In this document: positions 4,831 to 57,300 of the stretch, piece after piece
How positions within the stretch are numbered: the first letter of the stretch is position 1
How the letters are laid out: each line of letters begins with the position of its first letter
Assembly (NCBI GenBank): GCA_002269645.1
Contig: NIVC01000030.1
Span: 1 to 64,000, forward strand
Source: Macrostomum lignano
Taxonomy: Eukaryota
Direction of reading: 5' to 3'
DNA length: 64,000 nt
Position numbers and translations under genes: made by a program
The notes under the pieces: model-generated
Seen by the model: the letters and a program-made list of their open reading frames with translations, nothing else
Database searches by the model: none
Told to the model about the DNA's origin: nothing

Positions 4831-5124
4831 CTCTGTTAACAAATGTCTGTCACGTGTTAACTTCAAACAGATTTATTTATTCCTGATTACCTCGTCTGAC
4901 GCTTCTATTAGCCATCACAGCTCGCATTAACTGTCTCATCTGACAGAGTGGATGACCGCGAACCTATCCAGATACAGGGTGAAACAACTTGATGAAGAAT
5001 AAAAACTTACTGATTGAAAAAATGTTTGTTTTATTATATATTCACTTAGCAGAGAATGCTAATATTCAATAACTAGTTGCCCTTTCTTTCATGAACAAAT
5101 TTATTGTTTATTTTAGTGGAGCAG

Positions 5125-5579
5125 AAGGTTTGCTGGACCAGCCTCCTAGATCTTCAATTGCTGGACCAGCCTCCCATAACCCCAGTTGCTGAGCCAGCCT
5201 CCCAGATCCTCATTTGCTGGGCCAGCCTCCCAGATCCTCAGTTTCTTGGCCAGCCTCCCTGATCCTCAGTTGCTGGGTCACCAGCCTCCCAGATCCTCAG
5301 TTGCTGGGCCAGCCTCCCAGATCCTCAGTTGCTTGGCCAGCCTCCCAGATCCTCAGTTGCTGGGCCAGCCTCGCAGATCCTCAGTTGCTGGGCCAGCCTC
5401 CCAGATCCTCAGTTGCTGGGCCAGCCTTTCAGATCCTCAGTTGCTTGGCCAGCCTCCCAGATCCTCAGTTGCTGGGCCAGCCTCGCAGATCCTCAGTTGC
5501 TGGGCCAGCCTCCCAGATCCTCAGTTGCTGGGCCAGCCTTTCAGATCCTCAGTTGCTTGGCCAGCCTCCCAGATCCTCA
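5125..5579. repeat. 28-bp minisatellite (CCTCCCAGATCCTCAGTTGCTGGGCCAG), left part, interrupted by the LTR element
   Basis: Tandem units stop at ...AGATCCTCA|TGATG and resume at 16280. Confidence 0.95.
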
Positions 5580-6650
5580 TGATGTGTTCCTTATTACCAG
5601 TCCTCAACTGTAATCAAGGAACAATCACTTCTAGCTCTGTAGCTAGGCAACCCAGTAATCAAATGAAGGTATTCAATTACCTTTGAGTCCTTAAATGAGA
5701 GCTCTCGTAATAATCCTCGTCCGTAGTATCGCGATCAGTAACTTTCCTGTCCTTCAGGAAGTTTAGGCGCCTGGTAACAGTTGATCTGGTCCGTTATCTC
5801 CTTTGTCCTCTTGACTTCTTGCCGGCCGGTATCTGTAGTTCGGACCAATAAGAAGCTTCCAAATTAACAATGGGACCCTGCGCCAAACTGCGGTTTAATA
5901 TAAGCCTACTCCTTCTAGTAGTGCCTCTATGCACTCTAGGTATGGCTCCGGAAACCACTGATAGTCTTCTAAGATCTATCAGGGGCAGTCCTTCTGGAGA
6001 CTGCAACCAGTGGAGTCTAAACAGACTCAAGAGTCTCAGCAGACTCAAATAAACTCAAGTCTCAATAGACTTGAGCGAGACGTCTCAACCAACGGGCGCA
6101 AATGAGTAAGGCTTACCGCAAGAACTCGTCCACGACGCGAGTTTCTTCAGGAAGGCTTCACTAGAGCTTCCTCTTCGGAGCTTCTCTCCTTGGAGATTTT
6201 GGCTCCGGGTCCGTTCCGGACCACTTGTATTTATAGGCGTTCAGACCTCTCTCGAGGTCGTACATCACTGTCTTCGCAAATGTCAAAGGGTCACGATTCG
6301 GTGGCTGTCAAGCATGACAGGGTAGAAAGTTGCGCAACTAGTCTACTGTAAAAGCGCATGATTGGTTACCGTAGCTGGTAGACTTTGATTGGTTCATCCG
6401 GGTGCAACCCGAGTGCAAACAAAATGATGACTTGAAGGTGGGGTTTGAATTGACAGTTGTTGGTCGCACGTGATTGGGTGATTTCTAAAATTAGCATGCT
6501 CGAGGTCTCTCTCTTCCTATTGGTTAGTCCGAATATACTTATAGTTCAAAGCATACCTTTATTCATGCTCTTCAATTTACTACTAAATAAAATGTGTGAG
6601 TAGTACATTAACACTTTTATGTCTTCTTACGGGAGGTAGAACACTCTACA
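5580..6650 (-). repeat. 3' LTR (1071 bp), sense TGTAGAG...ACATCA
   Basis: By eye matches 15206-16279 except for 3 single-base indels; TATAAATA at 6228-6235 (-); preceded on the sense strand by the purine-rich ATGGGAGATTT (weak PPT candidate). Confidence 0.97.
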
Positions 6651-6868
6651 AAATCTCCCATGTTTACAAAAAACTCGTCCCGAGTTTTAAATAGAGGATT
6701 GAAACGCATAAAAAGTTCAAGCATGTCTTTATAATAATCATTTGTCACAAGTGTTACAGGTATTTAGTAATGGGTAGTTAAGAGCGTTGGTTATAAAAGT
6801 TATTTAAAGGTAAGTATACGCATGCAAATAAAATGTTTTTGGTTACAGTATTGACATGTGCGCCAAGA

Positions 6869-7081
6869 CTAACAATAGGCGCACTGCCGCAAACTACTTC
6901 TACCTATCGGGCAATTCTGCCAGAGCTGAATATAATGTGAGTCGCTTAAATATTGTCCGCATATGCGATGTCTGTTTTCACAAATAATTGGTGGCTTGAC
7001 AGCCAAGTCATCAGTTAAACATATTGGGCATTCGTAGAGTTGCTGTAGTTGGGGCGCCTGTTTGGACAGTGCGTTGCCCAT
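6869..7081 (-). CDS. Small accessory protein: N-myristoylation motif (MGNALSK) plus degenerate C3HC4 RING finger
   Basis: CPIC-x11-CENRH-x2-CGQY...CPIG spacing resembles SINA/SIAH-type RINGs; ligands 6 and 8 are TAT and GGT, each one change from TGT; a further CAYC at the C-terminus. Confidence 0.6.
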   Translation of the reverse strand: MGNALSKQAPQLQQLYECPICLTDDLAVKPPIICENRHRICGQYLSDSHYIQLWQNCPIGRSSLRQCAYC

Positions 7082-7192
7082 TGTCGTCGTCGCTTGAAGT
7101 TTGAAGTCGCTCAGATTAGTCGCCTCTTACGACAAGCTTGCGAAGCTGTAGAGCTATTCTGACCCGGTCTCTACACGGGTTGTTTTCGCAAC

Positions 7193-10100
7193 TTAACGAG
7201 GTCGCAGATTGTAGCCATGTTGCTGGTTCTCGGTTGATGTTTGTGTCTCCTCGTGTTTTGTTGCGATGTGGCGGTTCGCCGAACGCGTGCGATCAGCGTT
7301 GTCTAGTGACGGTAAAAACGTTGTCGTGTCAGTGTTGATCTTCTTTAGTCGATGAATGTGCACGTAGAATTGGTGCTGATGAGGATCTTGCACATTGGCC
7401 AGGCGTGCCGTTGTCGGTGACGTTAGTTGGACCACTCGATATGGTCCTTTGTACTTCTGTGCGTGTTTGTGCGTCTGTTGCGGCGGATAGTGCAGGTAGA
7501 CGATGTCGCCGGCTGTCAGAGTTGTCGATCTCGTGTCGGTGCCGGTGGTTAGAGCCACCTGATTGTCGATGTTGTGCTTGGCTACTTTCCATGCGAGGTG
7601 TAGTTGCGTGACGAACTTTTGAATGGACGTCGGGACTTCCACATATTGCGATGGTAGTAGTTGCTGTGCCAATAGGTTTGGCGGCTGGAAGTCTCGCCCA
7701 AACATTAGAAAGAATGGCGTATTGTCCGTTGATCGATGAATAGCGCTGTTGTAGGCCATTGTTACTGCTTGCAGATAGATGATCCAGTCGTCCGGTTGTT
7801 GATGCGCGAAGTGTGTAATCATCTCGTGTAGGTTGCGGTGAAACCTTTCAACCATGTTCGCCTTCGGATTGTAGGTCGATGTGTAGATCTGCGTGATGTT
7901 GAGGATCTTCACCACTTGCTGAAAGAGTTGAGACGTAAACTGCGATCCATTGTCCGATGTGAGGTTCTTTGGCGTACCGTACTTGCAGATGATGTCGTTG
8001 AAGAAACCCATTGCCACTGTCTGAGCTGTGATGTCCGGTATTGGTATGGCAATAGCAAACTTTGAGAAAATGTCCAAGGCTGTTAGGATGTAGGTGTAGG
8101 CTATGCCATGGAGACAGCTCGGTGGCAGCGGTCCGGTGATGTCGATGCTGAGACAGTCCATAGTTGTTGACTTTGGTATCGATTGTAGCTGTGGTTTTTG
8201 TCGTCGTCCTGTCTTCGATGCTGCGCATGAGTGGCAGTTGTTGCAATACTGCTTGATGTCGCCATGCATGCTTGGCCAAAAGTAGTATTGCTCCACTCTT
8301 GCAATGGTTTTGGCTGCCGACAGGTGTCCAGCGAGTGGGTTGTCGTGCAGCTCGTTGAGAATTGCCTGCCTAAACGAATATGGCATGTAGATTTTAGGTT
8401 TGTTGTCACTCATCCAGTAGAGTCGTGACTTGTTGATTGTTAAATGTTGTCGCTGCTTGCGCAGGAATTTTCGTTCCACGGGGCTGAGCTTGATGTCCTT
8501 GTCGTTGTTTTTAACTGCTATGTAGAAGTTGTCGTGTTCCGTCTCATCCACCAATTCCTTGATGTTAGGGATTGGATGAATGGCGTTGACTTCGTAGGCT
8601 CTTGACAGGGCGTCCGCGGCCTTGTTAGTAATTCCTGGTTTGTAGACGAGCTTGTAGTTGTAGTCCTGGATCTTGAGTGTCATCCTGATGAGTCGGTTGT
8701 TTGTTTGTCCTTTTGTAGTTACGACGTAGGTCAGCGGTGCGTGATCTGTGCGTACTATCGTCTGTAATGGAGATCCATAGATGTAGTAGTGAAACTGTCG
8801 TAGGGCGAACAGAACTCCTAGTAGTTCTCGTTCCGTAGCTGACCATTTTGTCTCATTCGGTTTAAGTGCTCGACTGACGTAGGCTATAGGTCGTTCCTTT
8901 TTGTCTTCAGTTTCCTGTAGTAGGACTGCTCCGAGTCCCGTTCCTGAGGCGTCTGTCTCGATGATGAAGGGTTTGTCGAAGTCCGGATGCTGTAGCAGTG
9001 CGTCTGATGTCAGCTGTCGTTTGATTTCGTCAAAACTTTCTTGTTGCTTTTGTGTCCAATTCTCCTGCTTCCATTTGTCGAACTTGAGCAGGTCGTACAG
9101 CGGCTTTGCTGTCTTCGCGAAGTTGGGTAAGAACTTTCGGAAGTATTGCGCAAGTCCAAGAAATGATTGGACCTTCGTTTTGCTAGTTGGCGTAGGAAAC
9201 TTTTTCACTTTATCCACGTTGTCTGGGTCCGGTGAAATTCCTTTGGCTGTCACCTGATGTCCCAGGTAACGCACGTTGTCTCGGAAGAATTTGCATTTAG
9301 TTGGTTGTAGCTTCAGACCTTGACGTTGTATAAGCGCGAGGGCCTTCTCCGTCGCTTCATAGAGTCGTTCGAAGTCTTCTCCGTAGGCCAAGATGTCGTC
9401 AACATAGTGCAACAGGTTCGTGCATCCTGCAAGCATGTATGCTGTTAGTCGGCTCATCGTTGCTGGGCTGTTGCTGAGTCCCATCGGCGATCGATTGTAC
9501 TCGTATACTTGTCCATTGTAGGTTTTGAAAGCCGTGTACTGTCGTGACTCTTTCTCGATTTCAATTTGCCAAAATCCATGACGTAGATCGAACACTGTGA
9601 ACAATTTTGCCGTGTTGAGCTTTGCTAGTAGTTCGGAGATCTTCGGTAGGCTTTGCTGATCCGTCGGTATGTACTTGTTCAGTAGTCTGAAGTCACATAC
9701 GAGTCGTCTTTCGTTAGTCTCCTTCTTTTGCACCAAGAGACATGGTGATGAGTATGCTGAAATGGCTTTGCTGATGATGCCGTGTTTCAGCATTTTGTCG
9801 ATAATCTCATCGAAGTGCTGTTGCAGATGCTTGGCGATCGGGTACGGTTTGCACTGAATTGGTTCCGTGTGCGGCAGAAGTTTGATTTCCTGTTTGATGT
9901 CCTTGGCTCGTCCGATGTCGTAGTCATGGTGGCAGAAAGCGTCGTTGTACTTCCACAACAGCTGTCGAACTTTCCTCTTTTGCTGTTCCGTAATCGGGCT
10001 GTCATCCAAATTGATCTTCTTTTGAAATTCTTCCTCTGTTAGTCGTGGAGTCGCTTGCTCAATCAGCATAACCGATGCTTGGGTGTTGAGATGACCGATG

Positions 10101-10924
10101 CACATTCCTTGTCGTAGATGAACCGTTTCTGTGTTCGGGTTGAATATTTGTACTGGCAGCTGTTTATCTTTTGCAACCAGTACTAGTGCCGTAGGCATCA
10201 TAATTTGGTGTTTAGCCGTGACTCTTCTGTTTGGGTCGAATATCATTGCTTCCTCCGTTGCGTTAGTTGCCTTTGCCTTTATCCAGCAGGCGCTCTCCGG
10301 TTGGATGATGACATCTTGTTGCAATGTTACTTTTGGTAGTACTCGGATCTGGTTGATCAATGGTTGTTCTACCGAGTCGATCTTGAACGTTTGCTTATTG
10401 AAGTCGAAGGTCAATGGTAGTCGAAGCTGCTTGAACGTGTCGATGCCAACAATAACGTCCTGGTTTGGGAGTCTGTCGATGACGTACGTTGGAACTGTCA
10501 AATGTTTATTAGCGATTCTTAAATCAATGTCGGCTTTTCCCAGAATGTTTAGCGAATGTCCTCCTGCTCCTGCAACTGCGATTGTTGCTGGCCGTAGAGC
10601 AAGTCGTAGCTTGTTGCACAGTTGTTTTGATATAACTGTGATGGAGCTGCCGGAGTCGAGTAGCGCTCGACATGGTAGATTGTTGATTACCACTTGAGCC
10701 ATGGCTTTGCCAATTTCGGCGTGTAGAGTACATACGTAGTTCTCTGGCCATTTTGGGTCTTGCTGTTCTGCTTGATAGTTAGGTGGTTGTATTCTTGGTG
10801 CCGTTGGTGTTGTCGGAATCGATGGATATAGCCGCGTTGCTAGTGTCGGTTGCCCTTGAACCTCACGATGTGCAGTTTCTGTTAGTTCTAAACTGTTGTC
10901 GCCTTCCGTTGTCGTTCTTTGCAT
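7193..10924 (-). CDS. pol: Pol: late-domain linker, aspartic protease, dUTPase-like remnant, RT, RNase H, integrase with GPY/F (frame open from 11233; first ATG after env at 10924)
   Basis: ALLDSGSS; YVDD; FIIETDASG/ERELL/TDH/ADALSR; HHCC (HDNPLAGH..CHSC); D(SIDIT), D(SDNG), E(MVERF); GPYRVV; no stops over 3.7 kb. Confidence 0.97.
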   Translation of the reverse strand: MQRTTTEGDNSLELTETAHREVQGQPTLATRLYPSIPTTPTAPRIQPPNYQAEQQDPKWPENYVCTLHAEIGKAMAQVVINNLPCRALLDSGSSITVISKQLCNKLRLALRPATIAVAGAGGHSLNILGKADIDLRIANKHLTVPTYVIDRLPNQDVIVGIDTFKQLRLPLTFDFNKQTFKIDSVEQPLINQIRVLPKVTLQQDVIIQPESACWIKAKATNATEEAMIFDPNRRVTAKHQIMMPTALVLVAKDKQLPVQIFNPNTETVHLRQGMCIGHLNTQASVMLIEQATPRLTEEEFQKKINLDDSPITEQQKRKVRQLLWKYNDAFCHHDYDIGRAKDIKQEIKLLPHTEPIQCKPYPIAKHLQQHFDEIIDKMLKHGIISKAISAYSSPCLLVQKKETNERRLVCDFRLLNKYIPTDQQSLPKISELLAKLNTAKLFTVFDLRHGFWQIEIEKESRQYTAFKTYNGQVYEYNRSPMGLSNSPATMSRLTAYMLAGCTNLLHYVDDILAYGEDFERLYEATEKALALIQRQGLKLQPTKCKFFRDNVRYLGHQVTAKGISPDPDNVDKVKKFPTPTSKTKVQSFLGLAQYFRKFLPNFAKTAKPLYDLLKFDKWKQENWTQKQQESFDEIKRQLTSDALLQHPDFDKPFIIETDASGTGLGAVLLQETEDKKERPIAYVSRALKPNETKWSATERELLGVLFALRQFHYYIYGSPLQTIVRTDHAPLTYVVTTKGQTNNRLIRMTLKIQDYNYKLVYKPGITNKAADALSRAYEVNAIHPIPNIKELVDETEHDNFYIAVKNNDKDIKLSPVERKFLRKQRQHLTINKSRLYWMSDNKPKIYMPYSFRQAILNELHDNPLAGHLSAAKTIARVEQYYFWPSMHGDIKQYCNNCHSCAASKTGRRQKPQLQSIPKSTTMDCLSIDITGPLPPSCLHGIAYTYILTALDIFSKFAIAIPIPDITAQTVAMGFFNDIICKYGTPKNLTSDNGSQFTSQLFQQVVKILNITQIYTSTYNPKANMVERFHRNLHEMITHFAHQQPDDWIIYLQAVTMAYNSAIHRSTDNTPFFLMFGRDFQPPNLLAQQLLPSQYVEVPTSIQKFVTQLHLAWKVAKHNIDNQVALTTGTDTRSTTLTAGDIVYLHYPPQQTHKHAQKYKGPYRVVQLTSPTTARLANVQDPHQHQFYVHIHRLKKINTDTTTFLPSLDNADRTRSANRHIATKHEETQTSTENQQHGYNLRPR

Positions 10925-10932
10925 TATGGCAT

Positions 10933-12775
10933 TCACTGTCTTCTTAGCTTTGGACAAGTTTGACTGAAGCACCGTACGATCGACGAAATGATGAAGATTG
11001 CCGTGACAATCCACACAATGCAAGCACCGTAGAAGATGAATCCTTGATAGAGACTGCCTCTTCCATTGAGCAGCTCCCAGAAGCTGTTTGTCCAAAATGA
11101 TTTGATGGCGCTGTCCATTGAAACAAGGACGGGAAATCTTCCTGTCCCGGTTCCTTTGTCCTTTCTTGTGAACAGCTGGTGAATCATCTTGCGTTGGGTG
11201 ATGAACGCTTGCAAGAAGTCGTTGATCGTCCATCCTGGTGTTATCTCGTCAAGTTGGATATCGGCGAATGGCGTATACTTCGTTCTGTTGAATCGGATTT
11301 TCAAATCCTCCATGTCGTAGTTTTCGTCGACGATTACTTCCGGTTCTGTGATGTTTGCTGTCGTTCCAGTTGTTTTGATGACGTGTAGTGCATTGTCCAG
11401 TTGATAATAGTTTGCTGCCGTGGTGCAAGGTCTCGGTATTGCGGTGCCAACGATGATGTTGTGTACCGTGTCCAAGAATCCCTGAATTCGTTTTCCTTCG
11501 TAGAACGCTTCAATCCTTGGCTTGTCGTAGCAGGTTGTTGACGTGTTCGACGGCAAGATGTTAAAGTGCTGTATCGGCGTGCACTTGTATATCAACAGAT
11601 GCTCGTATATTGGAACTGCCAAAACGTTCGTCATTCCGGTGATTTTACGAAAAGTCATCGTAGGGTTGACATAGTAGTTTTGTCTGGCATAATTTAAGTT
11701 GATTGCGTGCATTTTGCAAGTTAGCTGGACCAGTGTTCGATGCAAGTGGTTTAACTGGTTGTGTAGATTGTGATCCAAAGCCGTTATCTTTGCTGACAGT
11801 AGTCGGTTTGACACCAGTTTGGGACGTTCGATGTCACGTCGTCGTCTGTTCTGTTGTTCCTGCTGTTGATACGTTCCGTTGATGATCGCCAGAAAGGTTT
11901 GTTTGTCGTCATCTTTTACGTAGACTGGTATCTCTTGTTCCGAGATGAATAGTGTCTTGTCTGTATCCTTGCATTTCAGTTTTTGCTCGACTGGTTTCTT
12001 TTGAAACGTCAGTGCCAAGTCTCCTGACTTTGCCAAAAACGTGTTTGACAGTAGACCTCCTTCAACTGTGTGATACTTTTGAAGCTTGCAGTCAATTTCC
12101 GGCTCAACTTCCCACGCGAAGAAGTATTGTCGTGACTTAGATGGTTCTTCATATCGTGAGTCGCCTCTGCGTATATTTGCCATCGATAGTCTTGATGATA
12201 TGTTGGACTCAACGGTAAGCTGTATAGTTCCTCATTCCGCAGTATCGGCGTTGGACACCATCCTTTGCTGTATCGGCAGTCACTTAATTGCAGTTGTAGC
12301 GACTCCATTTTTTCAAAAGGATTGTGGTAGAATGGAATATTCCTGATTAGGTAACTGTTTCGTGTCATGTAGTTAGTCCATGCTTCCGAAAAGTGTACAT
12401 ATCGTCCGTTTGCTGAGTTCTTCGTTCGGTAAAGTTGTGCCTCCCCCACTTTCTCATCCGGTTCTAGCTGACCATCCTTTGAGAACAGTGTTTGGTTCCA
12501 TTGTAGACATTCAGCGTGCGACACATGTAGTTCGTGTTGCCAAAATCGAATTCTGTTCCATTGTCCTCGCCAAACTTTTTCCACTAGGTGCTTGTCTCTA
12601 AAGCACACTATTCCGAGTTGTCGATGCTTCTTGATGTTAGCTTTGTAGAGATCAATTGTGATCTTCTTTGGCTTCGTCTGATTTGTCTTGAAGTAGCTGC
12701 ATTTGATGTCGGTTGGTATCTTGTAGATCATCGGTTGGATATGCGCATCCGTTGGACATATCATTGGTTTTCCAT
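10933..12775 (-). CDS. env: Envelope glycoprotein, class III (herpes gB/chuvirus G-like) fusogen candidate, ~614 aa, split by a -1 frame step near 12225
   Basis: ORFs 12009-12890 and 10933-12183 join into a Cys-rich ectodomain (PMICPT, DCRYSKGWC, YFFAW, central helix ending LTC, NPT, CTPI, CYDKP, GFLD, RPC). It has several N-x-S/T sequons, a furin-like RRRR site, an aromatic membrane-proximal segment and a C-terminal TM (FIFYGACIVWIVTAIFIISSIV). Confidence 0.8.
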
Positions 12776-14509
12776 TGCTGTTGCTTTGGTGACTACTGCC
12801 GTCAGTAGTATTATGATGATCCAGAATATCCAGAATCGCCATTTTCTGAACGTTGCCGTTGTCTTTGCTGGCATTGGCTGCGGCTGCCATTCGTTATCTT
12901 CTGCGTCCGCATCGTATTCTTCCTCTTGTTCCATTGGCGTTTCCGAGCGCAAGGCATCCGATTCGTTCCGCTGCTTGTCGTCTTCATCATTTTCGTCCTT
13001 GCTTTCTTCCGATGTTGTAGTTTTGTCACTCCATTGTCTGCGGTACCTCACTTCGGCCTTGTAGTCGACCGTTTGAATGTAGGCTTCACCATTTCGTTTA
13101 TATCGGATCTCGTAGCATTGATCGCTGTCGGAGCTTAGATTTCTTTCTTCCATTCCTTTGTGCCTTCCGTCTTCATGTTCTTTGTCGGCGGCTCGGTTGT
13201 CATCAGCGTCATTGTGCATCTCATAATCGTGATCGCTGCTTTCTTCTTGCTGTTCTTCTTCCATCTCTGTATTTCCGTCGTTGCTTCTTTCTTTGTCATC
13301 CTTCGTTGCCAGTTCTTTGTCGTTGCCTTTGTTTGTTTCTTCTTTTCTTTCACTGATGTCGCTTGGCAATGTTTTTTCTGTGCTCACTTCTGTCTTTTCT
13401 TCTTCGCTGTCAATGTTAGTTTCTTTCATTTCGACCATGCTGATGTTTTTTGTCTTTTCGCTGCTCTCCGCATCGAGCCAGTCGATTTCATTGATAGTGA
13501 AGTCCATTTCCAAGTCGTCTATCGTGAAGACTTGCTGCTCTTGCTGTTCGCTTTCCGGTGTGTACGTGATGGCGTTTGCATATCGTTGCATCGCTTGCGT
13601 TGGTTGCTTGGGCATGTATCTGGCGTTTCGCGGTCTGTAGCCATTGTTTCCGAAGCGTTTCGTGTTTTGCTGCTGCCAATTTTGATGTTGTTGCCATGGT
13701 TTTTGCGGCTTCCTTCTGTTGAATGGCTGTCGCTGCATGTCATTTCTTGTTGACCGATGAGGACAATGTATTTGGTAGTGTCCTTCTCGTCCACAGTAAT
13801 AGCATCTGGCTTGGGCTCGTTCATTTCGTCTTTTTTGTTCGGCGATAACGGCTGTTTGATGTTGCATCAATTTGTTTAGTTGCTGTGTCAGTTTCTGCAC
13901 TTCTGTGTTGCCGGTTGTCATTAGTGGAGCGCTTGCTTCCCACTGCATTCCGCACCGTAAAAGGTCTTCCTCGGTTTCAATGTTTTCGCGTAGAAGTCTA
14001 TCTCGGAGTGACGGCTGTGCATTGTTTATTACGTGCAGAATCAGATTTTGTTCGCGATCCATCAATCGCTGTCGCTCTCTAGCGGCTAATTCTGCCGCAC
14101 CCAGAGGTGGTTGGTCTGCAGCTGGCAGTGTTGGCTGATGCAGTGCCTTAATTATCTGACGGATGTCGTCCACAAAGGTCAGGAAGGATTCGGTTGGCTG
14201 CATCCTTCTGTTATGCAACTTGTGCAGTAGCACTGATCTGTTTGTGCCACAGCGGTTGAAATGCGCGCGCAGTTGAATGATTAATGCTGGGTAGTTTTGC
14301 TGTGTTGCCGCATCTAGTTTACCATAAATCTCTCGTGCAGTGCCTTGGAGGAGTGGTGGCAACAGTTGCGCTTTTTCTGGATTTTGTAGGTTGTATTCCC
14401 TACATACCAGGTCAAAATGATCAACAAAGGTGTTAAAGTCTTTTTCCATAGAAAAGGTGCCAACTGTCTCTTTGATATCTCTGTGCACCGTTGGATTGCG
14501 CCGCGCCAT
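12761..14509 (-). CDS. gag: Gag (capsid plus CCHC nucleocapsid), followed by an acidic spacer and an in-frame internal signal/TM helix
   Basis: Retrotransposon gag-like helices (FVDHFDLVC..LLQGTAREIY; MQPTESFLTFVDDIR); zinc knuckle CYYCGREGHYQIHC; C-terminal RKWRFWIFWIIIILLTAVVTKATA. Confidence 0.93.
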   Translation of the reverse strand: MARRNPTVHRDIKETVGTFSMEKDFNTFVDHFDLVCREYNLQNPEKAQLLPPLLQGTAREIYGKLDAATQQNYPALIIQLRAHFNRCGTNRSVLLHKLHNRRMQPTESFLTFVDDIRQIIKALHQPTLPAADQPPLGAAELAARERQRLMDREQNLILHVINNAQPSLRDRLLRENIETEEDLLRCGMQWEASAPLMTTGNTEVQKLTQQLNKLMQHQTAVIAEQKRRNERAQARCYYCGREGHYQIHCPHRSTRNDMQRQPFNRRKPQKPWQQHQNWQQQNTKRFGNNGYRPRNARYMPKQPTQAMQRYANAITYTPESEQQEQQVFTIDDLEMDFTINEIDWLDAESSEKTKNISMVEMKETNIDSEEEKTEVSTEKTLPSDISERKEETNKGNDKELATKDDKERSNDGNTEMEEEQQEESSDHDYEMHNDADDNRAADKEHEDGRHKGMEERNLSSDSDQCYEIRYKRNGEAYIQTVDYKAEVRYRRQWSDKTTTSEESKDENDEDDKQRNESDALRSETPMEQEEEYDADAEDNEWQPQPMPAKTTATFRKWRFWIFWIIIILLTAVVTKATAMENQ

Positions 14510-15185
14510 GTTGTTGATGGGATAGAACGGTAGCTCTAGGTCTGGGTCGATTTGTAATGGATCTTCCAGTGTGGTGTTTCTTTCGAAATAAACTTCGGTT
14601 GTAACTGATTGTCTCGCGGCGCTTTTGACACCTCAATTTGTTATGTCTGACCTTGAGCGGAATTCGGCTTTTGGCTGCTTTTTCTGACCTCTTATTCGCT
14701 GGCTGATTTTCGCACTTATGCGGCGTCCCGCAAAGTGTATCTTTAAAGTGCTTGAAGTGCAGCTGCTTCTTGCTTTTTTCAAAGGCCTTTCTTGTCTTCG
14801 TGACGTGCCTTGTCACGTTTTATCAAATTTCGGTTTGTTTTAGCTTTCGTCAAGTGTTTTTAATTTCGGTTTTGTTTTAGTGTGTATTGATTATTTTTCG
14901 GTTTGTTTTCAGTGTACCGGACGTTGTTTTCGGTTTTGTTTAAGGTTTACTCTTGCTCGAGCTCGTTAAAAACAAAAATTTAACACGCGTGCTCAAACGT
15001 TACTCAAAATTGACAGATACTCAAGCCTGTATACCTAAGCTTTTACTCGAGTTTCAAATCGTACAAAAATCGAAAAGTGTCGAAAAGTGTTACCTCTAAC
15101 ACGTGCGCGCAAAATTAATGAAGTCGCTCTTTCGTCACTTTACAATAGCTTGGCCAGGCTATTGCTCAAAAGTTTGAGTAGTGCC

Positions 15186-15203
15186 GAGAGGGCGAGATCA
15201 CCA
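15186..15203 (-). promoter_or_regulatory. Putative primer-binding site TGGTGATCTCGCCCTCTC
   Basis: Starts with TGG 2 nt after the terminal CA of the 5' LTR; priming tRNA not identified. Confidence 0.6.
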
Positions 15204-15205
15204 AT

Positions 15206-16279
15206 TGATGTGTTCCTTATTACCAGTCCTCAACTGTAATCAAGGAACAATCACTTCTAGCTCTGTAGCTAGGCAACCCAGTAATCAAATGAAGGTATTC
15301 AATTACCTTTGAGTCCTTAAATGAGAGCTCTCGTAATAATCCTCGTCCGTAGTATCGCGATCAGTAACTTTCCTGTCCTTCAGGAAGTTTAGGCGCCTGG
15401 TAACAGTTGATCTGGTCCGTTATCTCCTTTGTCCTCTTGACTTCTTGCCGGCCGGTATCTGTAGTTCGGACCAATAAGAAGCTTCCAAATTAACAATGGG
15501 TACCCTGCGCCAAACTGCGGTTTAATATAAGCCTACTCCTTCTAGTAGTGCCTCTATGCACTCTAGGTATGGCTCCGGAAACCACTGATAGTCTTCTAAG
15601 ATCTATCAGGGGCAGTCCTTCTGGAGACTGCAACCAGTGGAGTCTAAACAGACTCAAGAGTCTCAGCAGACTCAAATAAACTCAAGTCTCAATAGACTTG
15701 AGCGAGACGTCTCAACCAACGGGCGCAAATGAGTAAGGCTTACCGCAAGAACTCGTCCACGACGCGAGTTTCTTCAGGAAGGCTTCACTAGAGCTTCCTC
15801 TTCGGAGCTTCTCTCCCTTGGAGATTGTTGGCTCCGGGTCCGTTCCGGACCACTTGTATTTATAGGCGTTCAGACCTCTCTCGAGGTCGTACATCACTGT
15901 CTTCGCAAATGTCAAAGGGTCACGATTCGGTGGCTGTCAAGCATGACAGGGTAGAAAGTTGCGCAACTAGTCTACTGTAAAAGCGCATGATTGGTTACCG
16001 TAGCTGGTAGACTTTGATTGGTTCATCCGGGTGCAACCCGAGTGCAAACAAAATGATGACTTGAAGGTGGGGTTTGAATTGACAGTTGTTGGTCGCACGT
16101 GATTGGGTGATTTCTAAAATTAGCATGCTCGAGGTCTCTCTCTTCCTATTGGTTAGTCCGAATATACTTATAGTTCAAAGCATACCTTTATTCATGCTCT
16201 TCAATTTACTACTAAATAAAATGTGTGAGTAGTACATTAACACTTTTATGTCTTCTTACGGGAGGTAGAACACTCTACA
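15206..16279 (-). repeat. 5' LTR (1074 bp)
   Basis: Direct repeat of 5580-6650; TATAAATA at 15857-15864 (-); ATTAAA at 15521-15526 (-). Confidence 0.97.
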
Positions 16280-16437
16280 CTCAGTTGCTGGGCCAGCCTC
16301 GCAGATCCTCAGTTGCTGGGCCAGCCTCCCAGATCCTCAGTTGCTGGGCCAGCCTCCCAGATCCCCAGTTGCTGGGCCAGCCTCCCAGATCCTCAGTTGC
16401 TGGGTCACCAGCCTCCCAGATCTCCAGTTGCTGGGCC
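16280..16437. repeat. 28-bp minisatellite, right part
   Basis: Continuation of the 5125-5579 array after the TSD. Confidence 0.93.
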
Positions 16438-16468
16438 ACCTTTTCAAATTCTCGGGCTCTGCACTAAC

Positions 16469-16887: not shown

Positions 16888-17789
16888 TAAAGTGATTATT
16901 AGTGCTGTTGTAAGTCTGTTGGAGACAAATAGATGCCTATCGTTGTAAGAGCATTGTATACACATTTATCCAATATCATTATAGCCTGTATCTACGCATT
17001 AACTAACCAATCTATACATATCTACCCATTTAACCACTAACTAACTACGATAATATCCCTTTATCTATCTAATTTATCCATTGCCTACCTAATCTACACA
17101 TCCATCACATCCATCTACATATGGATCACATCCATCTACATACTTACTACCTGGCTACTAACTTCATAATAGTAATAATTATTATGCAGTTCTATCTTAA
17201 CCTATCCGTCACATCATGTGATTTCAGGCATAAAAAATTTGCTCACAGAATGCAATCAGACAGTATACAAAAAGCTCTCACTTACCCGCTTGATACGTGC
17301 GTATTTTATACAGCAATCTAGGTTAGGTAATGTTCCACAGAGACTTTCAGTGTAGAACGAAAAACTCTCTTAAATCTGTGCTTTCATAGAGTTTTAAACT
17401 GTACATGCATACACTCTTATCAACTATACGAAATCAGTTGGCAGTGCATGTACATGCACACAAGTTGTAGTTGTACACTTGTGAGAAAAATATTTGCATA
17501 AACACAACTGCTGCTGCAAAGCACACATGTATTTGCATAGACGTACGCTTGTTAATATTACTGTAAGTCTTGACTTAGATGCAGGGGGCGTCCGGCGGAT
17601 GCAGCGAGGAGGCGGAGGGAGACCGCCCATTCCGCTAGCCCCTGGCGACCAAAGACTTCCGTTGAAGTGGTGTCGCTCAGGGGGACCCGTCGGTCTCGCC
17701 TGCAGCGCGGTCCTCCTCACCAACGGTGGGGAAGAAATCAGCTCGTCCGGTGTCCCTGAGGTACCGGGCGAGCAGCGGGATGCTCTCGG

Positions 17790-20700
17790 GCCTGCAAACG
17801 TCGGAGAGAACCGGGTTTGGCCCGACGTGAGTGAGCCTGGCCCTGGTTGAAAACCTAGCAGTAATAAAGTGCTCGATTTTCACTGCCTGAGCGGCAGAAG
17901 GGGCACCGCTCCTCGGGTACTTGGCCCTGAAGGAAGCGGTGGCGAGAGAAGCAGCCATGCCCGGAGAGGGCCATGCTACCTGCTCTGAGGTCTCTGCGGT
18001 TGAGCCTGAGGAGGGCTCTACGCAGGAGAGGAGAGGGGCAGGGGACGGCCGCACGGGATTGCCTACAATTCCGGGTGTCGTGCCACCTGCGGAGATGCTC
18101 GGAGTCAGTCCAGCGCTTAACGCGGGAGTTGATCACCGAGGCGGGGATGGGGGCTCCCGGGCCCGGCCCCAGCAGCGCGCCGGCGGAGCCAGCCTTGGCC
18201 AGCAGGTCAGCGCGCTTGTTGCCGAGGAAGCCGGCGTGGCCCGGGATCCATCTGAGCTCCACCTGGTTGCCTAGCGCAAGCCCGCGTTGAGCTGGGTGTT
18301 GAAGTCCAGGACGGACCTGGAGCTGGTGGTGCAGCGGTAGAGGGCTCGAAGGGCTGCTTGGCTGTCAGAGTGAAAAATAAATTTCCGACCGCTGAGCTGC
18401 CTTCGGCGCAGCTCTGCCGCGCAGGAGCTGATGGCAAAGCACCTCGCTCTGAAAAACACTGGAGTTAAGCCCAGTGTGCAAGGAGAAGCTCCACACCACG
18501 TCTCCCTTGAAGAAGACGCAAGCTCCGAAGCCTGAAAGACCATGCCTCATAGAGCCGTCAGTGTAACAGTGGACTTCAGAATCGCTCGCGCTGTCGCTCG
18601 CTTCGTGTCGAGGCTGAATAGTGACATTATACCTTTGGCTCAGGAGAAGGGCGGCTGGGATCGAGTCCATGAGGATGTTGAGCCCGCCACACTCCTCGAG
18701 AGCCTTGAGCCAGAGGTCAGAGTGCGGGATAAGCGACCGCTTCTTAAAGGCCCGCACTTTCTTGAAGGCCACCCCAGCATCTAGAAGACGCCGGGTGCTC
18801 TTCGCCGCCTCTCCTTTGATAAAAATATCCAGAGGAGGGGCACAGAGGAAGGCATTCATGCCTTCAAAAGGAGTAGAGGGTGGAGCGCTCATAGACATGC
18901 GGCAAGCTCTGCCCTGGGTTTTGTAAAGAGCGTCGAGGTTGCTCTTGACGCTCAGGCCGCTGGCCCACACGAGGCTGGCGTAACTGATCGAGGGGCGGTT
19001 GATGGCAGTGTAAATCCACCACAGCTTCCTGGGGGTGAGCCCCCAGGTGGTGCCCACGGCGCGCCTGATCTGAGCCAGGACAGCCAGGGATTTTTTAGTT
19101 TTAAGTTCAGTCCAGTTAAGCCTGAGTCCAGTTAAGCCTGAGTGAGGCCCAGGCAGCGGACCTGCTTCTCCATTGAAATATCCTTCTCATAGAGGGTGAG
19201 GGGCCTAATTGTCCAGAGCAATTTGTTGGTAAACATGACAGCTCTGGTTTTCGACTCTGAGAGTCTAAGGCCAAATTGGTTTGCCCAACGCTCCGCTCGT
19301 CCCAGAAAGCCCTGCAGAGGATCTCTAATGGTATCAACCGAGGGGCCCGCGCATATCGCGGTCACATCATCGTCATAGCCCACCTTGAGAATGGGGTCGT
19401 GGAGATCACTGCAAAGCAGCTCATCCAGGACCATGTTCCAGAGAACGGGGGTGAGAACTCCGCCCTGGGGGCCCCCTTTCTGGACAGGCGCCGAAAGAGA
19501 GCTGGCGTTAAGGTGGGCCACTACAGTGCGATTTCGGATCATGAACATGATCCACCGGACAAGGTGAGGGTGCGGAGCCCTGGATTCCAGGGCTCTGCAA
19601 AAAGCCTCGAAGATGACGTTGTCGAAGGCCCCCTCAATGTCCAGGAATAGCGAGAGGGCAAAACCGCTGCCAAGAACGGCCCTCTCCAGGAAGTCAACAA
19701 TGACATGGAGGGCACTCTCGGTAGACCTGCCCGCGCGGAAGGCGTGCTGGTTCTGCAAGAGTGGGAAGCGCTCCAGCTCGACTGAAAGTAGGCGCCAAAG
19801 CACCAGTCTCTCGAGGAGCTTAAGGCAGAAAGAGGTGAGGCTGATAGGCCTGAAGGCCTTCACCGATTGGTAGTCGCTCTTTCCAGGCTTGGGGATAAAG
19901 ACCACCCGGGCCTTCCTCCACGCAACTGGTACATAGCCCAGCTCCACACAAGCTCGAAGGAGACGACAGAGCAGGTCCAGGAAGAGGTGGTTTTTCACCG
20001 CCTCGTGCAAGAACGCTGGGTAGATGCCGTCGGGCCCAGGCGCCTTGAACGGGTTAAAGGACCTTGCCGCTCTAATAATGCGGTCTTTGTTGATCATAGA
20101 CTTGGTTAGGCCTTGCCCTCCCACGGTGTGGTCAGGCGGGCCCTGCTGAGTCGGAGATTTAGGGAAGAAACTGTTGAGCATTAACTCTAGAGTCTCTTTA
20201 GAGCTCTCTGTGACCGAGCCATCAAGTCTCTTCACAACAGAGAGTTTAGAAAAACGGTCATTCGTGAGTGCCTTAACCACGCGGGCTACGGGGCGAGAGC
20301 CCAATTGGTGCCGATTGGCCGTCTTGGCCCTTCTGACTTGGCCCTTAAACTTGTGGATCGCACGGGTATAGGCCTCTATATCAGATGGGTCTTTGGTTTT
20401 GAGCGCTCGCCTTTGGAGGGTCCTGGCTCGGCGCCGAAGGGCCCCGAGCTCTGGGTTCCACCAGGGAGCAGATTTCTTGCCTTTATAGGCCTTTAGAGGT
20501 GTAGAGAAAATACTAACGATTGAAATATGAGATATTTAAATTAGAGTTAAATTGAATCTAAGATAAGCCAGTACGAGCTAAGTGGGCGCAGGGCCCAAAC
20601 AAGTATATTTAAATGACCAATTTAGAGGGGGGTTGACTCCAGATAATAAGGAGAGGGGTGAAGTGCGCGACTGAAGAGAGAGGCGAGAATGGAGAGCCAA

Positions 20701-21400
20701 TCAGAAGGCAGCAAGGGAGAGAGAGATAAGAATAACAAGATTGAGCTCGACAGAGAGAGAGAGAGAGAGAAAACAGAGTAAACAGAGACAAGTGAAGGTG
20801 AACTAAGAAATGACTAGGAAAATCGCGACAAGAGGGCAGGCTGCTTCAAAGGCAGTGGTGATCGCCCCGCCCAGGGAGGAGGCGAGATCTCCACCACCTG
20901 GCAGTCAGAGAGGTCACTGTGGGGGGGGGGGGTCAAGATCCCGAAGGCCGCGGCTCAGCTTCGAGCCAAAGGCGGCCCAATCGGTATTCCTGACGTTCCG
21001 ACTCCAAGTGACCTTAGGCTTTTCCTTGGTCGGCCCAATGCAAAAGCGGATAAAGCGGTGGTCCGTGAGCGAGTCCTCATCCCACACTCGCCAGCCCGTG
21101 ACTGCGGAAAGCAGTCCGGGTGAAGCGATGGTGGTGTCGATGACTTCGGCCCACCGCCCATTATTGAACGTTGGTGCATTGCCCACGTTACAGAAAAATT
21201 GAGGTTTGTGCTGCTGACACAGGCCAGCGGCTCCTCGCCTCTGTTATTGGTGTTCCTGCTGCCCCAATGCAGGTGCTGTGCGTTCACATCCCATGCAATG
21301 AGCAGCTCAAACCGACGGGACGCGGCGTAGTCAATGAGGTTGACTAGCGCGTCGCAGACTACTGGGGCATCGCCTGGGAAATAGGCAGATGCTACCAGCA
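17790..21400 (-). pseudogene. LINE ORF2 (EN-RT-RH), frameshifted
   Basis: Fragments 20955-21401, 20914-21186, 19132-20304, 18365-19057, 17855-18262; RT motif reads YDDD; 16-bp duplication near 19111-19142. Confidence 0.88.
20500..20830. mobile_element. Solo LTR (331 bp) inserted in LINE ORF2
   Basis: TGTAGAG...CGACA termini with perfect 5-bp TSD AGAGG (20495-20499, 20831-20835); removing it restores the frame EAACPLKAYKGKKSAPWWNPEL. Confidence 0.9.
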
Positions 21401-21449
21401 CAGGTTTATTGGGAATGGGCGAGGGGTTGGGCCCAGCTGGGACGTCCCC

Positions 21450-23567
21450 ACCCTCCCTGGACGAGCTGGTGCGCCTAGGCGTCCCGGCGACCTCTCGCCT
21501 CCGCTTGGTGATTTTGGTGGTGCGGACCGCCTCAGCTGCGCGCTGGTACAGCCGCGCCGCTTGGTGCTGCGCGCTGGGCGTCGGTCGCCTCCGCCCTCAG
21601 CAGCGCGCTCAGCTTTTCCCGCGCGACCGTGCTGCCGGGCGGGGCGGTTTGCTTTGGCAGCCTGGGCAGAAGCTCGCGCCTCGGCCCCGGCTGCCTCAGC
21701 ATTCCGCCCGCCCTGCTCACTGCCACGGGGAGGGTCGGCCTCGTAGGAGCGGATGCGCAGCTTCCAGAGGCCGACGTTGATGAAGTTGCCGTGTGGATAG
21801 CGCCTCATCCAGGCGTCCGACAGCCCCAGGATGGCTGTGAAGCCAGTGCCGTCGGTGCGCTTAAGGGTGTCATGCACCACTAGGCCCGCGGCGGGAAGCT
21901 CCCGGTTGACTGCTAGCAGTCCTTTCCGGAGCTCGTCAGCAGAGGTAACGACGCTCCTGGCCGGAACCCAGATTCGATGCCTCTTGGTCCGGGGCGCTCG
22001 TCCTCTCTGCAGAAGGCTAAGTTGAGGTCCCAGCTCTGCTCGGGCAGCAGCTCAAGGAGCCGCCGACCCGAGTCAGCATCACTGGGCCAAATGAGAAGGC
22101 ACGAGTCCCTCGACGCATTCGAATGAATGTTCAGAGGCGTGCCCTTCAGAGTTTGCTTCCACAGGAGGCCATCAATGGCAACTCTCACCTGCTTCAGCTG
22201 GTCGGGAGACAGGCGCGCATGAAGAGTTTGGTCGGGTGGTGATCAGACACCCGAAAACTCCCACTTCCAGACACTTTAAGCCTGGGAACAAAATAGGGTG
22301 TAGTGCACTTACTGGTGCGGGCTCCTCTTCGTTGTAGGGCAGGTTCTCCGAGCTCGTTTCTTCAAATCTTTTTCTCCGGAGGAATCTTTTTGAGGTCTAG
22401 AATCGGCCGAAGGTGAGAGCGTAACAGTGAAATTGACGTCGCAATATTTCATCGAGTGCGGGAATCAATATATTTTTCGAGTGTCAAATCAATATCAATA
22501 GTGCGCCCTAAAAAAACAACTTCTAACACGAGGTCCTCCAAAAGGGGCGTCTTCTTCTAGAAGTAACAGAATCGGACTAGTGTGCTCCTACCGGTTAATC
22601 TAGGATAATCCTAATAAACAATCAATAATCCTCTAAGGGTATCGGAATCGGTCCGCAGATCCTATCCAGTCCCTTAGGAAAATGGGAGGCCTCAAATTCA
22701 AAGGACTCAGTAAAATCAACTGATCAACAATAACGGCCGGCAATAAAATCGCTCTCAGTAATCCAAATACCAAAGGCTCCAACAAAGGCTCACCAATTGG
22801 TTTACTTCTCCCTCAGAGATGTAGCCTCGAGTTGCTTCTGCAGTAAGCTCAAGATGTCTTGAGGCTTGCTCCGAGTCTGAGATTTCAGCTCGGATTGTGC
22901 TTTGTATTTATAGTCAAACTTAGTATATTATTAGTAACTTTGCTCAGATTTCATCATATTTCATCATGGTTGTAATCGTGATTCATATTTCATCATACGT
23001 TGTAATTTGATTCATACCTCATCATAAGTTGTATTCATGGTCTTAAAAATAGAGTATGACAATTTGCAATTTTAAAGCATTCAAGTTTTTCGAATTTTCA
23101 TGTTACTACTTACAGTAGCTCGTAGTTTACTCTGTATCGTATTTGGAGATTTCTACACGCGTCCTTCCCCAGAATGACAACTGCCGGTTGCCTCTTTGCC
23201 GCATCAGCGTGGGAGGCCCGGGGGTCGGTGGAGCCTTCTTCAGGTGGGCTGTCTAGGGCCATCGCCCCAGATTGGGAAGCTTCCGCTGCCGCGGGCCGTT
23301 GGCCCCTGGCGCCGGTTAGGCTTCCGCCCTCCTTGGCCCGCCTCGCCTTATTCAGCCGACGGTGGGCAGCTCCAGAGGTGGTGCTCAGCTGCTTGGCAGC
23401 TGGAGTAGCAGGTGTCTTCTCGGAGACACCGCTCAGAGTTGGCTCCACGGGTCTCGCCGAGGCGTCCCCGATGGTAGCAGGTGGTATGGCCGCGGAGTCC
23501 ACGGCCCCAGCAGAGGCCGGAGGCACTGTGTCATCCACAGCCGGTTGATTTCTTCGGCTAGAAGCCA
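21450..23567 (-). pseudogene. LINE ORF1, split by the 22240-23157 insertion
   Basis: MASSRRNQ...AVVILGKDA continues as PDQTLHARLSPDQLKQVRVAIDGLLW on the other side of the insert, directly upstream of the EN domain. Confidence 0.7.
22240..23157 (-). mobile_element. Solo-LTR-like insertion (~918 bp) in LINE ORF1
   Basis: Sense termini TGTAG...ATCA and TATAAATACAA (TATAAATA at 22905-22912) echo the big gypsy LTR; no clean TSD. Confidence 0.65.
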
Positions 23568-54396: not shown

Positions 54397-57300
54397 ATGA
54401 AGCTTCGCTGCAAACTACAAGGCGGACCCACCAGTCCTCCTGGTGGCGGTGCTCAAACGGTTGAACTGTCCGATAATGCTACTCTAAGTAGTCTGATTAG
54501 CGCAGTGGCAGCCGAATATGGCGTAGCTGCCGATTCTATTCAATTGAGCCAGAATGGCCGAGACCCATTGTCAGCTCCTGCTGACTCCACGCCTGACAGT
54601 ACTAGTGTCAGGAGTTTGGGTTTAGTGCCCGGCGATCTTATCTACGTGCGCTCCTCTTCTGGTACTACAGTTTCTGGTAAGTTGGCCGGCCGATATGTAT
54701 GTATTTGTTATTGTTTTATTTCTTTAAACTACTGAAGGTGTCAAGTCAGTAGTCGTCATGGATATTTTTATTAGCAAGTATGCACTTTCATCAGTTGCTC
54801 TAGAAGATGACTGACTGATACGTATCGAAGTACTGTTTTTATATAATATCCGATATGTATCGAAAAAAATTGTTTTTTACGTTACGATATGCATCGAAGA
54901 AAATGTTTTTTAAACTATTCCATATGTATCGGAAAAAAATTCATGCTATCCGATATGTATCGAAAAACTGTTTTTTTAAATATCCGATATGTATCCAAAA
55001 ACTATTTTTTAAATATCCGATATGTATCGAAAAAAGAGTTTTTCATGCTCTCCGATATGTATCAACAAACTGTCCTTATGCTATTTGATATTTGATATGT
55101 TTCAAAAACCTGTTTATCTTCGCCGATATGTATCTGAACGAGACTGTTATTATATTATCCGATATGTATTGAAGGACAGTTATTATACTAACCGATATGT
55201 ATCGAAATTAAACTTTGCACTCTATTATTTAAAGCCACAACAGGTGCACAGCCGTCACCAAGTAACTCAGCCAAATCAACTGCGCCAACTTCTAGCAAGA
55301 GTACGCCAACAGACTCAGCAGCCGCTGTACCAATTTTAGTCGGAGAAGTGCCCAATCGTTCTGTTCAGTTGTGCCCGTCGCTGCACTTGATGCAAAGATT
55401 GTACACCAACACTACTAATAGCGGGGCTACTACTATAAGTAGCCAATTGCTTCGATTCACTCTAGCCGCCCACTGTCTCATGGTGGAGACAGGATTCTTG
55501 TCTATTGACCCGGCAACTGGTCAGACTCATCAAGATTTGCTCTCTTCAGGATTCGAACCCGCGGGCCCAGAATCCGCTGCTGCCGCTAACCGAGTACTGA
55601 CTCGGTATCTTCTGCCGGCCGAGTTTACTAACCATGAATCTTCGACCACTGCTGAACCTGTCTCCTACTCTATCCAATATATTTATCATTTAACCAGACA
55701 GAGCGAATTTGGATCGGCTGCTCCTAGAATTCTACTGAAAGTAGTGCGAACTGGTCAGTTAGTATTGTGTCATTGCGCTGTTTGGCAATCGGCTGTTGTT
55801 AGTCCTGATAGTGGCAGCGAGGAGAGGCCGACTGAAACTCTGTGTTGTCACTCGTGGCACTGCAGCCTGGACCGATTCGTGCCCAGTCGGTCGTCTAGCG
55901 GTACTGGATACGAAAATTTGAAACAACTATCTGCGTTGTTTAAAGACGCTGTGAGTTTGTTCGATGTTTTTTGCTGTAGGTTAAATGCTGAGTTGGAACT
56001 AGAAGCTAGCGATATGTATTGAAACATCTTCTGGCAGGCTACTAAACAATTCAGCCGATATATATATCGAAATAATCATTATTTAGCTACAAATATCTTA
56101 TTAAAATATTACAGCCGATATGTATCGAAATTTGTATAAGTAAGCAGCTTATAGCCTATTAAAATACTACAGTGGATATATATATCGAAATATTCATTAG
56201 TTAGCTACTACTAGTAATAGTCTTTTTAAAATACTACAGCCGATATGTATCGAAATATTCATTACTTAGCTCCTAATAGCCTATTAAAGATACTACAGCC
56301 GATATGCATTGAAATATTCATTAGTTTGCTACTGATAGCCTATAAAAATATTACAGCCGATATGTATCGAAATATTTATAAGTTAGCAGCTTAAAGACTA
56401 TTAAAATGCTACTGTGGATGTATATCAAATTATTTATTATTAGCCACTAATAGCCTTTTTAAAATGCTGTAGCCGATATGTATCGAAATCGTAATTAGTT
56501 TGCTGCTGGTAGCCTATTAAAAGTATTACAGCCGATATGTATCGAAGTATTTATTAGTTAGCAGCTTATATCCCATTAAAAATACTACAGCCGATATGTA
56601 TCGAAATATTCATTAGTTTGCTGCTGGTAGCCTATCAAAAGTCAGCCGATATGTATCGAAGTATTTATTAGTTAGCAGCTTATATCCCATTAAAATGCTG
56701 CTGTGGATATATTAAAATATTTATATGGTTAGCCACTAATATGCTTTTTAAAATACTAGAGCCGATATGTATCGAAATATTCATTAGTTTGCTACTGGTA
56801 GCCTATTAAAAATATTGCAGCCGATATGTATCGAAAAAGCGTTTCCCTTTAGAATTCATCAGTGAGTCTCAGCACAATACGCACTTAAATTAAAACTGCA
56901 TACTTTTACTTTATTAAGTAGTATAATTCGCGCATCAATTTTTCTAGATAGCCGAACGAGCCAAGTCGGCCATACACGAAGCCTGCGGCCTGCCGCTCCG
57001 AGGCCTGACCGGCCTGCCTACAGAGCTGGTGCTGCGGATCATGCGCTACTGCCACGGGCCTCGCGCTGTCTGCTCGCTGGGAGAGGCTTGCCGCCGTCTG
57101 CAACTGCTGCACTCTGACAACTATGTGTGGCGGCCTATGCTGGTTAGGGACTATGGCACCGGCTCTGAGAGGGTTGCTCAGTACCTGCAGGCCGAACGGC
57201 AGGTGAGCTTGCTTGGGTAAGGGTGCCGGGCCAGCCTCCCAGATCCTCAGTTGCTGGGCCAGCCTCCCAGATCCTCAGTTGCCGGGCAAGCCTCCCATAT

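Follow-up and report, generated by a model that had tools for sequence, protein, structure and literature searches.

Candidate ESCRT-recruiting late domains in the Env cytoplasmic tail of a gB-type errantivirus from Macrostomum lignano

A 2026 survey of envelope-bearing Ty3/gypsy elements describes GAG-ENV-POL elements whose Env is of the gB type from flatworms, nematodes, and bryozoans (PMC13524379, by Chary and Hayashi). The main text of that report makes no mention of the terms late domain, ESCRT, PTAP, budding, RING, single ORF, fused, polyprotein, or cytoplasmic. The use of ESCRT by errantiviruses was stated to be unknown in the relevant passage of a 2012 review (PMC3383448), and a term search of the available text of a paper on Macrostomum lignano LTR elements (PMC12801592) returned no mention of glycoprotein, late domain, or ESCRT. 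In the literature searched, which lay largely outside subscription journals, we met with no description of late domains placed in the Env tail of an errantivirus.

Retroviral late domains, in the excerpts consulted, belong to the same motif classes as the motifs described here and are likewise clustered in a proline-rich stretch (PSAP, LYPAL, and PPPY in MLV Gag, PPPY and LYPSL in RSV, PTAP and YPXnL in HIV-1 p6). They are position independent and often multiple. All three types occur together in MLV Gag (PMC8402826, in the text on late domains), and a full set in one element is thus not unique. In retroviruses these domains lie in Gag, whereas in the element studied here, which lies in a 64-kb stretch of M. 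lignano DNA (referred to below as the window), they lie in the Env tail. Bluetongue NS3, which recruits ESCRT through late domains in the cytosolic tail of a membrane protein, is a parallel. Toxoplasma GRA14 likewise has late domains in the cytosolic tail of a membrane-spanning protein, and these recruit ESCRT (PMC10159163, section on GRA14). Unlike the Env of the window element, neither GRA14 nor bluetongue NS3 is a fusogen or a piece of a capsid-envelope-polymerase polyprotein. A retroelement protein that also touches ALIX via a late domain is L1 ORF1p, but L1 differs from the window element in being a non-LTR element with no envelope, a single motif, and an intracellular role (PMC5478143, in the parts that treat ALIX).

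The element and its motif cluster

The window contains a young 10.7-kb Ty3/gypsy LTR element (5580-16279, minus strand) with the order Gag-Env-Pol and a gB-type Env (Table 1). Paired LTRs, a target duplication, a primer-binding site (PBS), the order protease-RT-RNase H-integrase, and an Env between Gag and Pol are all present, and the element belongs to the HSV/gB-type GAG-ENV-POL errantiviruses (Ty3/gypsy), a class already published. With Mlig_errantivirus_2 and the other gB-type errantiviruses, as described in the main text of PMC13524379, it shares a Ty3/gypsy Pol, a gB-type Env, the Gag-Env-Pol order, and a multicopy state, and its 12-nt PBS is identical to that of Mlig_errantivirus_2. That text describes neither the cluster of motifs nor the one-frame topology of sister copies set out below. 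No tRNA gene was found in the 64-kb window. All 40 scored matches to the family were 94-100% identical, a count that may include duplicated haplotypes because host genes occur in threes too. When the Env of a sister copy, not that of the window copy, was modeled, the Foldseek matches listed were all herpes gB (best, EBV gB, E=8.6e-20), at a model pLDDT of 57.5 and Foldseek TM-scores of only 0.22-0.27.

Table 1. Positions in the window of the parts of the element and of the motifs in its Env tail
Feature	Position	Strand	Remarks
5' LTR	15206..16279	-	99.7% identity to 3' LTR, 0 mismatches, 3 gaps
3' LTR	5580..6650	-	LTR comparison
Primer-binding site	15192..15203	-	12-mer same as published Mlig_errantivirus_2 row
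4-bp target duplication	5576-5579 and 16280-16283		flanks element, inside 28-bp satellite
Gag, then acidic spacer	12842..14509	-	no Gly-2; CCHC knuckle 13804-13763
Internal signal peptide / first membrane segment TM1	12776..12841	-	end of Gag frame; cleavage putative
Env ectodomain, herpes gB-type class III fold	10933..12775	-	two frames in window copy; PF24664 E=1e-5, below cut-off
Furin-like RRRR site	11847-11830	-	within Env ectodomain
Env C-terminal membrane anchor TM2	10975..11040	-	hydropathy
Env cytoplasmic tail / pre-protease spacer	10751..10948	-	out of frame with Env in window copy
LYPSI	10817..10831	-	ALIX-type (LYPxL-like); fits YxxPhi too; Ile where textbook motif has Leu
PTAP	10796..10807	-	TSG101-type; exact match to P(T/S)AP consensus, conserved
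PPNY	10775..10786	-	PPxY (WW/NEDD4-type); exact consensus match, conserved within window element's family only
Trp-Pro	10745..10750	-	putative protease N-terminal boundary, from position
Pol: protease (LLDSG 10663-10649), RT, RNase H, integrase	7193..10750	-	Pfam Asp_protease_2, RVT_1, RT_RNaseH, Integrase_H2C2, rve
Small post-pol ORF	6869..7081	-	starts MG, RING-like cysteines, short (70 aa) in window's subfamily

On the minus strand, positions 10831-10775 read LYPSIPTTPTAPRIQPPNY, 19 residues that hold all three late-domain motif types. A first-pass annotation of the window had described this cluster as lying directly after the Env anchor. The cluster is present at exactly these coordinates, and it begins about 50 residues past the anchor. 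Shuffling the 65-residue linker 200,000 times gave PTAP in 1.6% and PPxY in 2.7% of the shuffles. The two co-occurred 64 times, and the full set of three types came up only once; the shuffles preserve the Pro/Thr richness and score co-occurrence, not clustering into 19 residues. LYPSI had been called an imperfect LYPxL, and it does carry Ile for the Leu of the YPXnL consensus, with LYPTL at the corresponding place in one other family. For comparison, YPTI is listed tentatively, with a question mark, as the ALIX motif of yellow fever NS3 (PMC10159163, motif list). A looser pattern, YPx(1-3)[LI], was dropped as a test because it has 163 matches across the window's six frames.

The window copy is interrupted near 12.8 kb, at 12.1-12.2 kb, and near 10.95 kb, so that it is spread over four frames. 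It is only because of the last of these breaks, just past the Env anchor, that the motifs of this copy fall in the Pol frame and not in that of Env. The earlier description of a Pol-frame linker needs correcting: the Env anchor shares the frame of the protease and the motifs in 22 of 30 copies examined, and 27 of the 30 keep the whole motif trio in frame with the protease. Seven of the 20 longer copies fetched have a single open frame of ~2,460-2,540 codons with Gag, Env, protease, RT, and integrase, and other families have single frames of 2,458-2,866 codons. With anchor and protease in one frame, the "Pol linker" is thus the Env cytoplasmic tail inside one polyprotein. Env and Pol had been taken for two linked products; both are instead parts of one polyprotein with Gag. 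A programmed frameshift between Env and Pol was rejected because 22/30 copies are in frame (the break in the window copy recurs in 3 other copies).

The 19 residues recur unchanged in P0041, a public protein that bears the name Macrostomum lignano and is 97% identical. The protein collection yielded 3 and 1 proteins in two profile searches; P0043 stops before the tail. Gene model P0002 skips the cluster, probably by a predicted intron, since no splice joint at the motif was among the joints listed from contigs of four sequencing runs, which show presence, not absence.

Conservation of the tail motifs

Conservation within the family was assessed by comparing the window copy with three copies about 91% identical to it in Env. 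The 39 codons upstream of the cluster carry 11-12 synonymous and 11-13 replacement changes; in the 19 cluster codons there are 4-5 synonymous changes and 2-3 that replace a residue, and no replacement falls on the ten defining residues. At the upstream rate, ten untouched residues would be expected with a probability of about 0.03 by rough arithmetic. PTAP shows two synonymous changes and no replacement in the diverged copies, and PPxY keeps its P, P, and Y, with N, I, or T at the variable position.

We then compared the tails of 10 env-bearing families of the M. lignano genome, with the 91% subfamily excluded from the tally and expectations taken from per-tail shuffles. P[TS]AP was present in 8/10 tails versus 0.29 expected, and [LIMFV]YPx[LI] in 7/10 versus 0.076 expected, all seven fitting the narrower [LIM]YPx[LI]. 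The nominal P values of 1e-11 (P[TS]AP) and 1e-13 (YP motif) are overstated because the families are related, falling into three deep clades, and because the YP pattern was set after seeing the sequences. PPxY occurred in the tail of the window family only (1/10 versus 0.62 expected, P=0.48), no more than chance. The presence of all three motif types, as first annotated, therefore holds for the window family; across families the core is P[TS]AP plus [LIM]YPx[LI]. The ten families form one RT-RNase H clade (support 99/97) with three deep branches that are 38-41% identical, and both core motifs occur in each branch. Family F6 has no motif in its tail, and PSAP is lost in two broken copies of one family. 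Besides F3, five of the seven family YP motifs end in Ile, not Leu.

The motifs shift position across families (PTAP 46-74 and YP 38-58 residues from the catalytic Asp) and swap order, and the window tail aligns with the tails of F3, F4, and F6 no better than shuffles do. Such behavior is that of short linear motifs maintained by selection. Each of four complete polyproteins has a single strict YP motif in its tail (4 in 359 residues) and none elsewhere (9,952 residues). Judged by the tails of other families, P[TS]AP and the YP motif, but not PPxY, bore out the expectation that the motifs would be conserved while the surrounding linker diverges.

The cluster does not lie in the usual retroviral location, Gag or matrix. 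In three copies of the window family, no PTAP, PPxY, or [LIMFV]YPx[LI] was found upstream of TM1, in agreement with the original suggestion that the late domains sit outside Gag; the family's Gag lacks PTAP, PPxY, and strict LYPxL. A loose YPAL is present in its capsid region, and the same is seen in env-less Gags. The nearest sister families carry PPxY elsewhere, in the Gag spacer that precedes the signal segment, which is the second stretch predicted to be cytosolic. This acidic spacer (12842-13400, minus strand, from zinc knuckle to signal segment) varies in length and sequence by subfamily, and there are sister families with PPxY or PSAP in it.

To look outside this genome we started from 39 Env relatives and set aside 2 that belong to its own families, 12 in which no anchor could be detected, and 5 whose tails were <50 residues long, which left 20. 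Any motif was present in 7/20 of these gB-bearing tails versus 1.54 expected (P=2.5e-4), and 13/20 had none. P[TS]AP was found in 3/20 versus 0.21 expected, one carrier being named Haemonchus contortus; PPxY alone and YPx[LI] alone were not enriched (P=0.11 and 0.19). No foreign locus with its DNA context was recovered by searching. As judged from these tails, conservation outside the M. lignano genome is real but patchy.

The motifs had also been predicted to be absent from env-less sister elements. At all 17 env-less loci, of which 11 were scored directly and 6 were read from frames of >=250 codons, no motif was present in Gag or before the protease; one of the 6 has PTAP in its integrase. 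These loci are not true sisters, none of which was found. The control is weak because the env-less elements fall outside the env clade and the chance expectation is low.

A proposed route of release and its alternatives

We consider it probable, with some reserve, that the cluster represents ESCRT-recruiting late domains in the cytoplasmic tail of a gB-type Env, shifted there from Gag. One Gag-Env-Pol polyprotein would be made, the single frame being present in sister copies. Gag, which starts without Gly-2 in 8/8 copies inspected and so has no glycine for myristoylation, would be tethered to the membrane via the internal signal segment. The Env ectodomain would enter the lumen, and the tail and Pol would stay in the cytosol, with Pol hanging from the Env anchor; this topology is predicted because two hydrophobic segments flank the gB-type ectodomain in hydropathy plots. 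The tail may then bind TSG101 through PTAP, ALIX through LYPSI, and, in the window family, also a NEDD4-type ligase through PPNY. By recruiting these adaptors it would allow ESCRT to cut the neck of a particle that buds away from the cytosol, whether through the plasma membrane or into the lumen of an internal compartment. Pol is probably released by a protease cut shortly past the cluster, at Trp-Pro, which would leave the motifs on Env. If true, this would give gB-bearing elements a concrete route of particle release, with late domains placed unusually in the tail of a fusogen instead of Gag or matrix.

The host genome encodes the adaptors concerned. A TSG101 UEV domain (E=4e-44 to the solved human UEV) and an ALIX V domain are present, and WW lies directly upstream of HECT at at least four loci (C59, C158, C13, and C632). 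In the alignment, the host UEV has His at the position of a Tyr in human TSG101, a residue that we take to adjoin the peptide groove. A complex prediction for the host UEV with a 41-residue piece of the tail scored 0.14 against a mark of 0.34, with a tool not proven on peptides, and was given no weight in either direction.

Sorting signals are common in membrane-protein tails, and the cluster sits in one. The YPSI of LYPSI could act as a YxxPhi endocytosis signal, with PTAP and PPxY routing the fusogen to multivesicular bodies for turnover or rerouting; this would limit cell-cell fusion and involve no particle scission. Every conserved YP motif fits YxxPhi too, and each tail has 2-5 lysines available for ubiquitin. 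However, YxxPhi needs neither a Pro at +1 nor a hydrophobic residue at -1, and 7/7 family motifs have both, as does RSV LYPSL in the excerpts consulted. Entry into multivesicular bodies is, moreover, ESCRT budding itself and would take tethered Gag and Pol along. We regard Env sorting as an unlikely explanation, though one that carries some weight.

Retroviral proteases cleave aromatic-Pro bonds, and MLV LYPAL overlaps such a cut. The YP of the tail, 38-58 residues from the catalytic Asp across families, might accordingly be a Tyr-Pro bond cut by the element's own protease when it trims the Env tail, with P[TS]AP a by-product of a proline-rich spacer. The P[TS]AP count given above, 8/10 against 0.29, is far above what composition predicts. 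A separate Trp-Pro, 31-38 residues ahead of the catalytic Asp in 9/10 families, keeps the fixed position expected of a protease boundary, whereas YP moves. Cleavage in place of a late-domain role is therefore improbable in our estimation, but the two roles can coexist at YP.

An ESCRT step inside the cell, such as ribonucleoprotein movement or nuclear entry with no particle leaving, has a precedent in human L1 ORF1p, which requires its YPXnL-ALIX contact for retrotransposition and has no extracellular phase (PMC5478143, in the parts that treat ALIX). Late domains alone thus do not prove an extracellular phase, for which the first-pass annotation had offered the cluster as independent support. 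We nevertheless judge such a step quite improbable here: the motifs accompany an intact gB-type fusogen, and they are missing before the protease at the 17 env-less loci, which would need an intracellular step as well. Chance matches in a Pro/Thr-rich linker are scarcely credible as the whole explanation, for although the motifs are only 4-5 residues long, F6 and most foreign tails lack them, and PPxY is family specific, the shuffle tests, the synonymous-only change at defining residues, and the retention in three deep clades largely refute chance as the source of P[TS]AP and of the YP motif.

Returning to late domains in the Env tail, we put forward, tentatively and with more doubt than conviction, a budding design proper to the Gag-Env-Pol errantiviruses and common to flatworm and at least some nematode elements. 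It would combine a membrane-threaded polyprotein, a matrix-free Gag, late domains in the Env tail, and a protease that trims the tail at maturation. The odd Gag-Env-Pol order would then have a reason, since a single polyprotein would bring the capsid and the fusogen to one membrane together with the late domains and the enzymes. If this design is true, the motifs would be direct sequence evidence of invertebrate elements exiting the cell via ESCRT-driven budding.

Other features of the element and its copies

The small post-pol ORF begins with MG, which suggests possible myristoylation, and has no late domain. In the other subfamily this ORF is 89 to >200 aa long with a second cysteine cluster (e.g., L041:9382-9813, plus strand), and the longer ORF gives sub-threshold RING matches. 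A small RING protein of this kind, if myristoylated, would recall the arenavirus Z protein.

Two joints were seen in contigs of the sequencing runs. One, of 285 bases with GT-AG-type ends on the minus strand (15458-15744, in the 5' LTR), appeared in the contigs of three runs, which we guess to be RNA, but not in those of the fourth run, and it is a possible leader intron. The other, seen in two runs of which one is of uncertain type, skips 3,190 bases (12015-15206) that cover Gag and the beginning of Env, and is probably a deleted DNA copy.

Family copies lie ~10-14 kb apart on shared contigs (G000:C669, with L033 and L034; G000:C2447; G000:C1130), which suggests tandem arrays. Six copies of a sister family (L085 and L086; G000:C301, C525, and four further contigs) align with no more than the initial third of the Env query, and in five of them the frame ends at the same point, after 1,031 codons. 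This group is possibly an internally deleted derivative that spread. The 28-bp satellite around the element (5110-5634 and 16237-16450) recurs near 57.1-57.7 kb (57119-57697). Adjoining the element is a GC-rich block (~58%; 17424-22051, minus strand) with several frames of 150-470 codons.
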